In this document: positions 30,001 to 36,000 of the stretch, in pieces
Numbering within the stretch: position 1 is the first letter of the stretch
Layout: every line of letters starts with the position of its first letter
DNA from: Escherichia coli O157:H7
GTDB taxonomy: Bacteria > Pseudomonadota > Gammaproteobacteria > Enterobacterales > Enterobacteriaceae
Strand: one strand, 5' to 3'
DNA length: 64,000 nucleotides
Assembly: GCF_013167455.1 (NCBI RefSeq)
Contig: NZ_CP038328.1
Position numbers: made by a program

Positions 30001-33000
30001 AACCTTATACCCGCCACTTACCAGATATAACGTGCACACCACCGTGCAGAAATACAATAAAATAAGCTGTACAAATCTCATTATCCCTCCCGGTTATTGA
30101 TATGGTGTTGACATCGTTAATACCTGTTGGTTAAAAAAGTGTCCTGCATGTTTTGCTTTGGATATAACGACATTTGCCGCCGGTTCTGGCTCCTTGTTTT
30201 CCCTGCCCCGGCGGCCTTTTTTTCCTGCTTACGGGTTATTCACTTCCACTGTTATACTTTCAATCAGCACCGGATATGTCGCACCGCTAGTGATATCGGT
30301 CACGCGCAATTTGTCTGCCGTAAACGTGCCGACCGGTGACTGTGACAGCATGAACGGCGTCCCGTCCTTACCATCAATGACCGGCGTCACCTCAATACTG
30401 TTGTTACCGGCAAAACGGAAGCCCAGCGTATGCCATTCGTTATCAAATGCGCCGAATGACCCCAGCTTCGTGTTCTGACCAGCATTTCCCTTGTGGTACA
30501 TCACATTAAGGTCTGTGGCATCGCTCTGTACGTAAAACGACGCCAGCAGGTTATGACCGGCATTACCTTCCAGTGTGACGCCCTGAGGCAGTGAAGAAAC
30601 CGGCCAGTACAGCGCCAGTGCGTACTGATTAGCTGTCAGTGTGCCATCAACTTTAAAACGACAACTGATAAGCCCGCCCTTCTCCAGCAGGTCTGCGCCA
30701 TTACCGGCATCATGCTGCATAAACCACGAGGAACTTCCTGTCTGTTTGGTCCACCTCAGCGCCTTACCTCCTGCAGCACCTGCATCATCAACTACCAATG
30801 CACGCCCTCCTTCAGCTCCCCATCCCTGCGGATTCAGTAAACCACCTGACTCTGTTGCACGGTAATAAAGCAGCGTTGTCACTGATTTCCCGTCCGTTGA
30901 CGGTGTTGATGGTGTGTCCGGTGACGGCTTCTCATCCGGCGGCATCACAACCTGTTCCCCACCCACCAGTTCAGCCGTCCGTCCTGCATGGAGAAGAATC
31001 GCTGAGGCAAGACGGTCAGAAATAATCCCCCTGCGTGCCCATGAGCTGAAATGGCTCGCACGGTCTGCTGACGTCCAGTTTGCCGACGTCCGGGAGGCCG
31101 CACCGTAATATCCTGATGCCGGAATATCCGGGTCTTCTTCCGGTTTGTTCGTCGGGACATTTGCTCCGTTCTCATCGGTCATGAACGGCACAAAGTGAAT
31201 ATTCTTTTCCGTTTTGTTTTTGTAACTGCCGTACACCGTCTGGTAAGTGGATTCGCTCTTCTGCTTCCAGAAATAAGTTGTGTCTCCACATATCCAGGGA
31301 ACACCGTCAGCAGAACCACCAGCGCACTGTCCCACCATATCTGCAAGGTCCGTACGATATTGTTCCACTACTTCTGTAAAACGGGCTGTGTGATTTGCTG
31401 GCGTTCCGTCAAAGTCAAATTCCCCCTGCATCCACACCACGGCAAGCAGCACATTTTTCGGGTTCTTTGCCAGCGCGGCTTTTGTACGACCGATGAGATC
31501 CTTATACAGCGGCCTGCCCACACCCCAGCGGGTAGAACTCTCTGAGGCACCGGTCACGTCACTGTATGTTCCATCTGCCCCGGTGGTGAAAGCTGAACCA
31601 CCACGGCAGCACGGAACCAGAAGAATACCCGCATTCGCCGGTATAAACGGCAGCAGCTTTTTGGCAATATGCAGCCCCTGCCCCACGGTTCCGTACTGAC
31701 CTTTCGACAGGTCAGCTTTCGGATGGTTAAGACGGCTCATGTCCTGTACATCATGCAGACAGTGGTCTGCCGGAATAATGTCGTTATATTTACAGGGAGC
31801 GCCATCCGGCGTCACTGTGCTGCGACGAGCCAGTTGCTTTATACGCGGGTCAGGACGGTCATATGTCTGCGGCAGAGGAAGCCCCTCACCGTAAGCCATG
31901 CCGTTCGACTGCCCGGCCAGTGGAATAACGTAGTAATAATCTGGCTCCGTGGTGACCACTCCCGGATAGCCACCATCCCCCGTGCCGGGCACAACCACTG
32001 GCGTGGTCACATCCCCCTCCGCGGCAATCGCCTGCATCAGGGTATAAGGGGTTATGGCCACAGGACTACCAAACGGCTGCCAGCCCTCTTTCAGTTTGTG
32101 TGTCAGCTTTTCCGCAAGATCTGACGGCGACGCCGCCCTGACAACATCATAATGTTTAATCGACATCGAATTTCTCCCGTGTACAGGAACAGAGTTAAAA
32201 AGCCGGAACCGGAATCAAATCACAGGATGACCATCTGCCAGTGGCTGGTCGTAAAAAAAAGGCCGCGCCATGCGCAGCCGGAAATAAAGGGATAACGATG
32301 ATAGTTTGAGAAAAACAGAAATAACACTTTTGTGGCAAAGCATGGTGCCGGGTGCCTCCCGGTGAATTCAGTACCAGCACCTGAATCCGCGATTATCCCA
32401 TATACCTGGTTGCTGATTGCCCCTCCGCACAGGGGGATTCACCATGCAGTAGTATTTTTAATAAACAGTAAACAAAAAAATCAAGCATTATGCAGGCTGT
32501 TTCTTTTTATCACCGGCCACAGCAATACCACAATGCCGCAGACCAGCCCCCCATCCGCCAGCACCGACATGATTCTGCTGGTGAAATCCACCATCACCAC
32601 CAGAAACAGCAGGAGTGCAGCCACAGCCAGACGCAGTTTTACCGTCACAGGTAATTCTCCAGACGAAGACCCAGAACACCGGCAATCTCTTCCAGCACCT
32701 TGCGCTCTTCCGGCTCAATTTCGCCGTCTGCCTCCGCAATGGCCACCGCCACATCCAGCACATCTTCCGCTTCACGCGTATCGTGTTTCACATCCTCGAT
32801 CTCACGTAACGCCGCACGACGACCAGTTTTAAAGTTCGTATCCAGCTGACCGATAATGGTTGCGCTAATCGCATTAATTTCTGACGTAAACGCGGACAGC
32901 GCTGGCTGATTACGCAGTACCTGTTCGATCTTCGCTTTCTAGGAAGCCTCACATTCACCATCTGCACAGGCCACCAGGTATGCGGCGTTAATCACCGCCT

Positions 33001-36000
33001 GTGCCAGATCGCGTTTCTCAAACTTTCCTTTTTCCGGTTAACGTGACACACCAATAACTCTTGTCGAAAAAGCCAGCAAGCAGAAAGACCGGTATTCACA
33101 ACCACCAGCGCGTTTACTGTACTGGCGTGATTTCAGTCATAAAAAAACCCGCCTGGCGACGGGTGTAAAAAATCTTCTAACGTCAGGCATAAAACGCCCA
33201 TCGTTAGGGCAAATTTACCACAGATTCGGGAAAAATCAACAAAGCTATCTGGTCACCTTTTTCAGTTGTTGTTCTGCCCATGCTTCTTCAATATCAAACT
33301 GCACCACCAGCGTATCGTAAAAACGTTTAACTGTTTTTTTCCATGTATCAAGAGATATGGCATCGGTTACATTACATATGGCATTAAATGCCTCCGTTGA
33401 AGGTAATCTTTCATAGCCACGACCACCACAACGCTGGCAGTCTCTGATAACAGGCATACCACGTTTTACCGACTCTTCACGATGAATGGCAACACCGCGC
33501 CCACGAAAATCTTTACAGGCGGTGGAAACCTCCCCCTTCCCTCCACACTCCGGACAGGCAACTTTTACCACCTCCCTGACTTTTTTCCATTCCTCCCAGT
33601 AAGACGGATACACGCCTTTTGTGCACTTTGCCCACACTGGCGGCTTACCATCCGGATACTGGATCTTGTTTGTAAAAACCTCGCTTTCAATAAATTTTTT
33701 TCCGTGACAACAGGGGCACTGTTTTTTGCTCGCCGCGCTACGGGCATAATCTTCAAACGCATACGAAGCCATAATACGCATCACTGCCGGTTTTATTTCT
33801 GCCGGGAGTTTTCTTAACGCCGCCACGCGATCACACCGACTGAGTGCATATTCTGTCAGCAATTCTGTTGCCCGCTCTCTGTCATTCATACTAATGCCCA
33901 TTTTCCCAAGGAACGCAGAAAACCCCATCTCAGCCCAATTCTGTGTCATGCCCTGCGCGGCCATCACATCAGTGATACTCAGCGTATCTTTCGACGTTGA
34001 GGCCGATGCATCAGTCAGGCCGGGGGATTTTGGGGAGTAGTATTTCGGTAAATCTTCCAGTTTCATTTTTTGACCTGCCCTTCAAGCATTATGGGGTAAA
34101 TCTTCACCCCCAGACGTCCACCAGATACTGGCTGAGCACGAACGATATTGATTTCATCAAACTGCTCATCGTCCATTAGCAACCCCGCATGCGTCAGCGC
34201 ATCCAGCGGCGCTTTCAGAATATTGTCCAGGTCACGGCGGCGCTTATCCGGTGGCTCGGCAATAATCTTTATCGCCAGCCTTCCGGACAGGCTTAATTTC
34301 AGCCGCTGCTGGCGAACAATAAGCGCCACAGCCCGGCGATAACGCTCACCGGCTTTTGATACAAAATATGTGCTGCCACGACGTCGCCAGTAGGTGTTCA
34401 CCGTCGGCGGGTAAAGCAAAACAAACTCTATACGCATCAGTAACCTCTTTTACCCGAGCACGCCGGTTGCAAAGGCGTGATCAAGAAAACGAAAAATTAA
34501 ATCAACCTGGGAACCATGCTTTTCTTCGAACGCCAGCGGATCCGCATGAAGCTCGTTGTGATGCTCCCGACACAGCGGTAGCGTGAAAATATCGTGGGAT
34601 TTTGTTCCCATTCCGCCCTGACCATGACCAATCAGATGATGAGGATCGTCCGCTGGCTTACCACAACACGCACACGGCTGTGTCTTTACCCAGCGTGTGT
34701 ATTTCTCATTTACCCAGCGGCGACGTTTAGGTCGTTTCCTGAAGGATTCCGGAGACTCCGGATCAACGGCAATGCTGACCACCGTCTTTTCCTGTGGTGG
34801 GTTCTGTTGCTGGTGGGTGTGAGACGGTAGCGCAATATTTTTTGTGCGCTGCTTCAGTATGCTGGTGGCGGTCTGTTCTCCCGGTATGATGTCGCTTTCA
34901 CGGTATACGGAGCGGATTTTTTCCGCACGCAACCCCAGCGAACGACGTAATACCGCTTCCGGTAGCGCGTCCGCCACCTGATTGCGGACCGCCCACCAGG
35001 ATAATTCAGCCAGAGATAATTCACGCTCCTGTGCGCCATTCATTGCGTGACGGATGATGTCAATCATCCAGGCGGCCAGATTCTGTTGAGCAAGTTGATC
35101 CAGTGAATCAGATGTCTGCTCCCGCAGCTGGTTGTCGCAGTGCCAGCACAACACCATCGCGCCGGTACCGTAACGGTGAATGACGGTTTCGCTATGATGA
35201 TAATCACCGTGTAGCCACTGGCAGGATTTCACGTGACGTAATAACCAGTCAGACAGTGCACCAGCGCCACCCGCAGCACGGATCACCCGCTCATCGCTGA
35301 AAAATGGCAGTAGTGATTTATCTTCCGCCAGCGGCTGGTGAACGGCAGGTACAACCCCGGACGGCAGAGCTCGCATGCTTTTTGGTTCCGGCTCCACCAG
35401 TATTCTGCCGTTATGGAATGCTGACATTGATTCACGGCCTGGCTTAACGATAACCAGACCGAGTTCCGGTACCAGAACAGGTCGAAGTAATACCCGCACA
35501 TTACCTCCAGATCCGTTGCTGGAATGTGCGGGACGGACGCGGTGGCCGTTCGGAGTAAGGGAGCCTGACGGAGATTATCCAGTGACGGTAGTCGAGGCTA
35601 AGGGCTTTTTTAACCTCGCATCCGCGCCTGCGGTAACACTGAATGAGCCATTCGGCCTGTTCTTCAGTGCATGGGGGATGCTGGTACCAGTCAGATTTGA
35701 ATGCGTGAAAACACCGTCCGCGCCTGCTGGCAAAGACGGCAGAATCATCAGAATTGTATAATTTGGTATCGTGCGCCATCGGTTGTCTCTGCTGGCGCAG
35801 CAGGTGCCAGTTGTTCAGGCTGGCGTGCGAATTGTAAACCAGAATGCCAGGAAAAAACAAAACCCGCCGAAGCGGGTTAAGTGCGGGTGCGTTGAGGATG
35901 CCTGATTCATCAGAGGTGGCGAGGGATTTCTCCCTCGCCGGGTCTCTTACTCCTCAGGTTCGTAAGCTGTGAAGACAGCGACCTCCGTCTGGCCGGTTCG

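Follow-up and report, generated by a model that had tools for sequence, protein, structure and literature searches.

The interval between the late antiterminator gene Q and nanS-p in the 64,000-nucleotide stretch of Escherichia coli O157:H7 DNA analyzed here (contig NZ_CP038328.1; hereafter, the window) is a cargo ("moron") site adjoining the late-gene switch of a lambdoid prophage, equivalent to the position of stx in Stx phages. The prophage is of the Sp6 type, with its late genes on the minus strand; Sakai prophage Sp6 is 99.2% identical to the window across 42.4 kb. The explanation that best covers the whole interval, which we regard as very probable, is a pR'-proximal moron slot subject to Q read-through and holding a dead tciA gene (tciA'), an intact-looking tciB, and a small RNA (sRNA) gene (Table 1). 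All 1078 nt could be assigned to leader, tciA', tciB, or sRNA. The initial annotation had called the site a Q-controlled cargo slot with degraded cargo. The slot itself is borne out by a Stx2a phage whose 273-aa Q is the same, whose pR'-tR' leader is 99% identical, and which carries stx2AB there. "Degraded" fits the dead tciA and the deleted tRNA genes but not tciB, which is intact, or the sRNA gene at the 3' border, which apparently is too.

Table 1. Features of the late switch and cargo slot (coordinates are those of the window)
Feature	Coordinates	Strand	Evidence
Late antiterminator Q, 273 aa	33245..34066	-	Two PF03589 matches; phrog_127; BLASTP against lambda Q
Late promoter pR'	33212..33239	-	Read from sequence; alignment with lambda pR', Evi, and Stx2_EH1910
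AACGAT, -10-like element at transcript start	33200..33205	-	Invariant column block AACGATGGG common to lambda
tR' intrinsic terminator	33141..33164	-	Terminator scan; fold; conservation
Late leader remnant	33026..33140	-	BLAST against Stx2_EH1910 and Sp11
Deletion junction, A/G-rich AAAAAG microhomology	33018..33032	-	Three-way comparison; BLAST breakpoints
tciA' pseudogene, TerB family	32645..33025	-	Translations against intact TciA; PF05099 on homologue; PGAP
tciB, intact 55-aa two-helix membrane protein	32481..32648	-	PF13064 DUF3927; phrog_1470; hydropathy
Candidate sRNA promoter, -10 CATAAT	32487..32492	-	Within last tciB codons; CAYAAT conserved in alignment
Alternative candidate sRNA promoter, -35 TTGATT and -10 TAAAAA	32484-32479, 32460-32455	-	TTG...TAAAA conserved
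STnc100-family sRNA gene, EcOnc04 paralogue	32253..32480	-	Rfam RF02076; synteny; EcOnc04 probe match; Table S2 of PMC4104026
Second intrinsic terminator	32253..32281	-	Terminator scan; alignment
nanS-p, SASA-family 9-O-acetyl sialate esterase	30229..32166	-	ORF list; RefSeq and Sakai annotation

A 2014 study of Sakai prophages already reported this layout of Q, pR', moron, sRNA, and nanS-p and described the site as a pR' moron insertion site (Tree et al., PMC4104026); in the published model, sRNA genes lie between the moron coding sequence and the conserved open reading frame (ORF) 3' of pR' (PMC4104026; PMC7873438). The window is the Sp6 equivalent, with the same gene order, an sRNA gene of an Hfq-binding family included, and with nanS-p as the first conserved late gene past the slot. 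It differs in that the moron coding sequence is truncated, its tRNAs are deleted, and no AgvB/AsxR-type convergent partner was detected. Public annotation already has the tciA' pseudogene and the DUF3927 ORF. The site is therefore an ordinary one, a known moron slot with a dead tciA, an intact tciB, and an sRNA gene of a known Hfq-binding type, and its importance beyond correct annotation is small.

Neither tRNA genes (ARAGORN, Rfam) nor stx genes were found anywhere in the window, and the combination of tRNAs and stxAB that marks Stx-converting cargo is absent. The earlier statement that the slot lacks both thus stands, as does the statement that Stx phages carry them there. Among Stx2a late regions (Stx2_EH1910, LC567834; also Sp5/933W), that of Stx2_EH1910 shares the Q protein and leader and has an STnc100 element at the 3' border of the slot; its cargo consists of a 65-aa ORF, a methylase, three tRNAs, and stx2AB, in contrast to tciA' and tciB in the window. 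Evi, JLK-2012, PPyecE, and Sakai Sp11 have the cassette intact, with tRNAs, tciA (143 aa), tciB, and STnc100. An O157 prophage without stx and a genuine Stx2a phage thus have the exact Q, pR', and tR' leader in common. This illustrates an exchange of cargo, stx or tciAB, within one Q-controlled slot whose borders stay fixed, with tR' at one end and an STnc100-family sRNA at the other.

The late switch and its leader RNA

Q aligns with lambda Q over its full length, collinear end to end, at 32% identity (BLASTP, E 7e-41), and is a member of the lambda Q family with a zinc-ribbon insertion of ~66 aa. It lies, as initially proposed, directly 5' of a candidate late promoter. This lambda-like pR' has a -35 element TTGATT (33239-33234), a 16-nt spacer, and an extended -10 element TGgTAAATT (33220-33212). 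Its core is nearly invariant across the window, lambda pR', phage Evi, and Stx2_EH1910, and 20 of 23 positions in the block GGTAAATTTG...AACGATGGG match lambda pR'. A generic sigma-70 scan found neither pR' nor a promoter for the sRNA; pR' was overlooked because only 8 of its 12 consensus positions match, and the promoter calls therefore rest on homology and conservation.

Lambda Q binds between the -35 and -10 elements of pR' and loads at a sigma70-dependent pause on a -10-like element. The AACGAT at the transcript start in the window is, to judge from its sequence, the counterpart of that pause signal. Gene order follows the lambda-type module, with Q 5' of the promoter, the -10-like element, and a terminator downstream. 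The homologous Q, the -10 TAAATT, the AACGAT, and the short terminated leader RNA to be expected all recall lambda Q/pR'/6S RNA/tR', whereas the insertion in Q and the sequence between -35 and -10 differ, and tR' lies at about +65 compared to +194 in lambda.

The terminator downstream of pR', already placed there in the initial annotation, is predicted to form a 7-bp stem (33164-33147) with a GCCA loop and a U7 tract ending at 33141, and it is kept in phage Evi and the Stx2a phage. The 65-nt leader RNA folds at -21.3 kcal/mol (z -2.56). Four terminator-like sites occur in the region against 1.9 +/- 1.6 expected, a count not significant by itself; the case for the terminators is made by stem strength, U-tracts, and conservation.

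In Stx1 and Stx2a phages with a 144-aa Q, transcription from pR' to tR' yields the sRNA StxS (PMC7547250), whose occurrence correlates with this short-Q clade. The window leader occupies the same position and would likewise be produced by termination of a pR' transcript, but beyond a generic terminator GC/U run it has no sequence homology to StxS. We rejected it as a StxS homologue: in a comparison with the Sp15 StxS locus, the sole similarity was 12 nt of terminator type, and the rpoS/stx1B seed had no counterpart.

A truncated tciA and an intact tciB

The leader (33244-33024) is 99.1% identical to that of Stx2_EH1910 (L004 3501-3721) and 88.6% identical to that of Sp11, and in both of these phages the homologous stretch precedes the 65-aa ORF. 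A three-way comparison of the window, with Sp11 or the Stx2 phage as left parent and Sp11 tciA as right parent, located a junction, with BLAST breakpoints at query 219-221, that joins Stx2-phage-type leader to codon 18 of tciA. The comparison shows that the ancestor was Sp11-like, with the leader followed by a 65-aa ORF, a regulator gene, tRNA genes, tciA, tciB, and the sRNA gene. A deletion of ~1.5 kb between AAAAAG microhomologies then took out the small ORF, the regulator, the tRNAs, and the first 17 codons of tciA with its start. Among 5426 complete E. coli genomes, 476 have the junction, an O45:H2 strain among them.

Compared with the intact 143-aa TciA of Evi, JLK-2012, Sp11, and PPyecE, the window copy lacks its start and codons 1 to 17 and has a GAG-to-TAG change at codon 46 (32941-32939). 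Beyond the junction, a single frame runs unbroken by indels from codon 18 through to the stop, with nearly the same sequence as intact TciA. PF05099 matches residues 26 to 138 of the intact homologue, and the window copy has no intact ORF for this TerB domain. PGAP annotates a pseudogene with the note "internal stop." Thus, tciA is nonfunctional, since it is both truncated by the deletion and interrupted at codon 46. The TAG reported initially in a TerB-like frame is genuine: at least 30 independent complete genomes carry the 1078-nt interval with 100% identity, which excludes sequencing error, and 421 records match it at 99% or more. The "frame changes" reported with it are instead the deletion junction, upstream of which (~33025) the DNA is leader and not tciA. 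The same codon-46 TAG is present in a full-length tciA beside tRNAs in a second O157 prophage, in strain MB9-1. One concrete path of decay is thereby documented, a microhomology deletion of tRNAs and the tciA start together with a nonsense allele common to paralogous prophages.

The 55-aa membrane ORF that followed the TerB-like frame in the initial annotation is tciB, an intact member of a conserved family (PF13064 DUF3927, E 1.7e-16; phrog_1470 "TciB-like," E 1.5e-29; family pN/pS about 0.3) with two hydropathy peaks corresponding to its two hydrophobic segments. It starts at a GTG that overlaps with the stop codon of tciA (GTGA), the arrangement of a TerB-family gene followed by an overlapping DUF3927 mini-membrane gene seen in the tciA-tciB pairs of P1/P7/D6, 434, JLK-2012, Evi, and Sp11; unlike these, the window tciA has no 17 N-terminal codons and has a nonsense codon. 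Having acquired a private V34G change and lost both the upstream gene to which its translation was coupled and any promoter of the cassette, tciB may be silent or decaying.

The label "tellurite/colicin resistance, cell-division inhibition" attached to tciA-tciB is annotation by homology. An anti-phage defense role of TciA/TciB was considered and dropped, as PADLOC returned nothing meaningful (one partial match, E 0.0035); NCBIfam gave only a subthreshold DjlA-like TerB-domain match.

The sRNA gene at the 3' border

Absent from the initial annotation was an STnc100-family sRNA gene between tciB and nanS-p, of the family that comprises the EcOnc04-05-06-27 sRNAs. The Rfam model (RF02076) is matched in full, 1-206, with 101.6 bits against a gathering score of 47 (core 32473-32307), and the core is followed by a U-rich single-stranded tail and then the terminator, giving a predicted length of ~221-228 nt. 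The position is that of the family, between moron coding sequence and nanS-p, on the late strand and with an intrinsic terminator at the end, and an STnc100 element occupies the same slot position in four comparator phages. A northern probe for EcOnc04 matches 32306-32340 with one indel, and Table S2 of PMC4104026 gives ~222 nt for EcOnc04 (Sp11) on northern blots, Hfq-CRAC reads and probe being common to paralogues that they do not separate. Visual inspection of the aligned window and Stx2 copies shows a compensatory change from A-U to G-C in an inner helix. The gene appears intact, and the family has been shown experimentally to bind Hfq.

Two candidate promoters lie around the end of tciB, both scoring below pass in the generic scan. 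Transcripts from a predicted start at the upstream candidate would have lengths that fit the northern sizes. The second strong terminator noted initially before nanS-p is present, with an 8-bp stem (32279-32261; 7 GC pairs) and a U8 tract ending at 32253. Since an apparently intact sRNA gene borders the slot on the 3' side, this is most probably the terminator of the sRNA itself rather than a free-standing barrier. It is nearly invariant in JLK-2012 and Evi, and a different terminator stands at the equivalent position in the Stx2 and PPyecE copies. Rfam searches of positions 28000-38000 of the window, at E up to 1, gave no match to AgvB or AsxR (RF02702/RF02703); PPyecE_EH1910, by comparison, carries AgvB. 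For counts of sRNA copies in enterohemorrhagic E. coli (EHEC), Sp6 adds one more EcOnc04/STnc100 paralogue.

Alternative readings and proposed working of the slot

Could the whole interval be inert debris of a defective prophage, with a nonfunctional sRNA gene and a second terminator that is a mere relic? The double inactivation of tciA, the loss of the tRNAs, and a private nonsynonymous change in tciB (V34G) agree with this, as do a difference at 32441 in the Sakai Sp6 sRNA copy, which by our reading of the sequence falls within the closing helix, and the absence of Sp6 from the prophages listed with convergent sRNA pairs, or dyads (PMC4104026). We nevertheless hold it to be improbable: the sRNA region differs at only 7 of 281 nt from the Sp11 EcOnc04 locus, its STnc100 score is more than twice the Rfam threshold, its U-rich tail and terminator have hardly changed between phages that are ~9% diverged elsewhere, and ECs1525 (Sp6) is named as an EcOnc04 homologue in Table S2 of PMC4104026. 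Decay of the TerB-like gene in place by frameshifts and a stop, between two terminators acting as independent barriers around dead cargo, would account for the TAG and for both terminators, all of which are real, and yet is scarcely credible. The homologues of the DNA upstream of 33025 are the leaders of the Stx2 phage and Sp11, not tciA, no indel occurs in the 126 homologous codons, and translations and BLAST breakpoints together rule out frameshift decay; the second terminator follows the end of the strong STnc100 match by 26 nt, and an sRNA terminator lies at the equivalent position in the Stx2 and PPyecE copies.

That tciA' still yields a product working with TciB, through a 48-aa C-terminal ORF or read-through of the TAG, seems very unlikely to us, although the Sakai annotation has a 48-aa "TciA/TerB-like protein" (ECs_5711, GTG at 32791) and phrog_3920, of 48 positions, matches exactly this fragment. 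With the TerB domain spanning residues 26 to 138, 48 residues are less than half a domain; no in-frame start codon lies between junction and TAG, PGAP calls a pseudogene, and the few changes relative to intact alleles are equally well explained by recent inactivation. An improbable pair of possibilities, taken jointly, is that the ~65-nt leader is a stable trans-acting sRNA in lysogens and that tciB is a stand-alone moron. Though unrelated to StxS in sequence, the leader could act in lysogens as StxS does in short-Q Stx phages, and tciB could persist as a late-expressed membrane moron working without TciA. Table S2 of PMC4104026 reports no Hfq peak at the position of the Sp6 leader, and our literature search found no account of a trans-acting leader for this Q type or of a stand-alone tciB in this cassette.

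In the preferred reading, a Q-controlled moron slot with an sRNA gene at its border, pR' would fire constitutively in the lysogen, as in the lambda paradigm, and RNA polymerase would pause at AACGAT and stop at tR', releasing a leader RNA of ~65 nt (33205-33141). The STnc100/EcOnc04-family sRNA would meanwhile be transcribed separately, starting from a promoter of its own where tciB ends and stopping at the second terminator. After induction, the lambda-family Q would load on the paused polymerase, and by homology to lambda the modified enzyme would pass tR', tciA', tciB, and the sRNA terminator, which must be read through because nanS-p lies beyond it, and go on to nanS-p and the lysis and morphogenesis genes.

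Layout of the interval between Q and nanS-p

The late genes of the minus strand run in the order DUF968, rusA, Q, the 1078-nt interval, nanS-p, and then the holin and lysis genes. Many complete E. coli O157:H7 genomes contain the interval with 100% identity, and Sakai prophage Sp6, in which ECs1525 lies between Q (ECs1524) and nanS-p (ECs1527), matches the whole window with 99.2% identity across 42.4 kb. The initial annotation of this site, a Q-controlled cargo slot holding a decayed TerB-like gene, a small membrane ORF, and two terminators, was largely correct and its coordinates were good, but an sRNA gene had been overlooked. 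The reading as a Q-controlled slot is right and already published, and public annotation already has the pseudogene, the DUF3927 ORF, and, via Rfam, the sRNA.

Features of the late region from Q to nanS-p
Feature	Position	Strand	Basis or remark
Q, 273 aa	34066-33245	-	two PF03589 matches
pR' -35, TTGATT	33239-33234	-	directly after Q stop codon
pR' extended -10, TGgTAAATT	33220-33212	-	directly after Q stop codon
First terminator, tR'	stem 33164-33147, U7 to 33141	-	7-bp stem; terminator scan
tciB, 55 aa	32648-32481	-	DUF3927 (PF13064), E 1.7e-16
STnc100 sRNA (RF02076)	32473-32307	- (late strand)	Rfam, 101.6 bits versus gathering score 47
Second terminator	stem 32279-32261, U8 to 32253	-	8-bp stem, 7 GC pairs; terminator scan
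nanS-p	32166-30229	-	next after interval

The Q protein is collinear with lambda Q (32% identity, E 7e-41) save for a cysteine-rich insertion of ~66 aa, whose extra CxxC motifs are the reason that Pfam gives two "Antiterm" matches and a weak DnaJ-type zinc-finger match. The same Q drives stx2a in phage Stx2_EH1910. The candidate late promoter proposed downstream of Q was confirmed: besides its -35 and -10 elements, it has the block GGTAAATTTGnnnnAACGATGGG in common with lambda pR' (20 of 23 positions), as well as with phage Evi and an Stx2a phage. In lambda pR', AACGAT at the transcript start is the sigma70-dependent pause signal and the site of Q loading. Only 8 of the 12 consensus positions match in the window's pR', which is why a generic promoter scan did not report it. 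Both terminators described at the outset were recovered by the terminator scan, and the fold of the predicted 65-nt leader comprises a 5' hairpin and tR' (-21.3 kcal/mol, z -2.56).

Truncation of tciA and state of the cassette

The TerB-like frame is the tciA member of a tciA-tciB cassette. Intact tciA (143 aa, PF05099 TerB domain) is found at this site in three phages, Evi, JLK-2012, and PPyecE_EH1910, as well as in Sakai prophage Sp11, with tRNA genes 5' of it in three of these four (Evi, JLK-2012, and Sp11); ARAGORN and Rfam find no tRNA gene in the whole window, in agreement with what had been noted for the slot. The frame had been described as broken by an in-frame TAG and by frame changes. 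The TAG is real, a GAG-to-TAG change at codon 46 (32941-32939), and it is the sole lesion between codon 18 and the stop. The frame changes, however, are instead a deletion junction: in the compared translations, the window copy from codon 18 (KFEKRD...) to the stop is unbroken, near-identical to the intact versions, and free of any frameshift. Decay by frameshifting was rejected, since translation is continuous and the sequence upstream of 33025 is phage leader.

The tciA sequence does not extend upstream of about 33025; window positions 33244-33024 match the leader behind the same Q gene in Stx2_EH1910 (99.1% identity) and the Sp11 leader (88.6% identity), both of which run into a 65-aa ORF. 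A three-way comparison mapped the junction to an A/G-rich AAAAAG microhomology, the left parent reading ...CCGGAAAAGGGAAAAAG/ACATG, the right parent ...GGAAATTAAAAAG/TTTGAG, and the window ...CCGGAAAAAGGAAAG/TTTGAG (slash, junction). Relative to an Sp11-like arrangement, ~1.5 kb has been deleted, with loss of the 65-aa ORF, a regulator gene, the tRNA genes, and tciA codons 1 to 17. Of 5426 complete E. coli genomes, 476 have the junction, an O45:H2 STEC strain among them.

A 61-nt stretch spanning the TAG has exact matches in 520 records. A second prophage of O157:H7 strain MB9-1 (L010, 2127931-2132991) has the same TAG in a full-length tciA that adjoins three tRNA genes, and its Q is frameshifted; therefore, the nonsense allele is not tied to the deletion. 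This suggests that the TAG allele either is older than the Sp6 deletion or was moved by recombination between paralogous prophages. Purifying selection on intact tciA alleles is strong (pN/pS about 0.03 to 0.06). Few changes are private to the window copy, and its inactivation therefore looks recent.

The 55-aa ORF had rightly been called a two-helix membrane protein: it belongs to PF13064, matches a "TciB-like" PHROG, and contains two hydrophobic segments. Constraint on the tciB family (pN/pS about 0.3) is weaker than that on tciA, and the window copy has one private change, V34G. The description of the slot as holding degraded cargo fits the lesions of tciA but is right only in part, as tciB and the sRNA gene both look intact.

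The STnc100 sRNA gene and its probable terminator

Each of the four comparator phages has an STnc100 family member in this position: in Evi, JLK-2012, and PPyecE it follows tciB, and in the Stx2a phage it comes 75 nt after stx2B. In an alignment of the sRNA region (A3), the core closing helix GCAUGGUG...CACCAUGC is invariant, as are the inner hairpins; in one inner helix, a base pair read by eye is A-U in the window, G-C in the Stx2 copy, and G-U in Evi. In the window, JLK-2012, and Evi, the core is followed 3' by a near-invariant U-rich stretch and then the terminator at 32281-32253, whereas the Stx2 and PPyecE copies have a different terminator at the equivalent place. Hence, the second strong terminator most probably belongs to the sRNA itself. 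The window and the Sp11 EcOnc04 locus differ at 7 of 281 positions, with copy-specific sites at 32469, 32454, 32450, 32418, 32374, and 32322. Position 32441 is T in the window and C in Sakai Sp6; in our reading it falls within the closing helix, where the Sakai C would form a C-A mismatch.

Hfq-bound sRNAs have been reported at exactly this moron location (Tree et al. 2014, PMC4104026), and Table S2 of that study places EcOnc04 in Sp11, with a size of ~222 nt by northern blotting and homologues ECs1525, ECs2262, ECs2746, and ECs2189. The EcOnc04 northern probe matches window positions 32306-32340 with one single-base indel, and the probes for EcOnc05 and EcOnc06 both match the STnc100 core. 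Downstream of stx2B, STnc100 overlaps EcOnc27/sRNA103 (PMC12711010; PMC12370729), and it is related to the EPEC sRNA PasD (bioRxiv 10.64898/2026.05.13.724894). A predicted sRNA from about 32480-32473 to 32253 would measure 221 to 228 nt, which fits the ~222-nt band, and for the Stx2 copy a similar calculation gives ~232 nt, in keeping with the 235/247-nt bands of EcOnc27. These fits favor a candidate promoter with its -10, CATAAT (32492-32487), within the final codons of tciB; an alternative candidate, TTGATT (32484-32479) plus TAAAAA (32460-32455), is conserved too.

Predicted expression and other RNA elements

The comparisons establish which parts are present, what they are homologous to, and the history of the deletion; from the lambda model and published work on EHEC, a course of expression can be proposed. 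In the lysogen, pR' transcripts would end at tR', and the sRNA would be made independently and end at its own terminator. After induction, polymerase modified by Q would pass both terminators and continue into nanS-p and the lysis genes; tciB and the truncated tciA would be transcribed en route.

In position the leader RNA is the counterpart of StxS, but the two are not homologous, the sole similarity to the Sp15 StxS locus being a 12-nt terminator-type match; StxS is associated with a 144-aa Q clade (PMC7547250). The Sp6 entries retrieved from Table S2, EcOnc33 and EcOnc54, include no Hfq-bound sRNA at the Sp6 leader (PMC4104026). EcOnc33, an Hfq-bound sRNA of ~71 nt, was assigned to Sp6 by Tree et al. 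(PMC4104026); its northern probe has an exact match at 30141-30175, with the RNA on the plus strand, immediately beyond the 3' end of nanS-p and antisense to it.

The DUF968-rusA-Q block is preceded by a sok antisense RNA (36097-36271, minus strand; RF01794, 114 bits), which belongs to a type I toxin-antitoxin locus of the hok/sok type; reference genomes annotate hokD/mokC here. Between this locus and the DUF968 gene there is a weak isrK-like match (35857-35938, minus strand; 27.7 bits, under the gathering score of 50, E 0.0084) with a terminator-like hairpin at its end. A sar RNA (10100-10166, plus strand; RF00262, 66.7 bits), the P22-type antisense regulator of the antirepressor ant, adjoins an antirepressor gene, just upstream of and antisense to it, amid the tail genes (ECs_1556/ECs_1557) by Sakai coordinate mapping.
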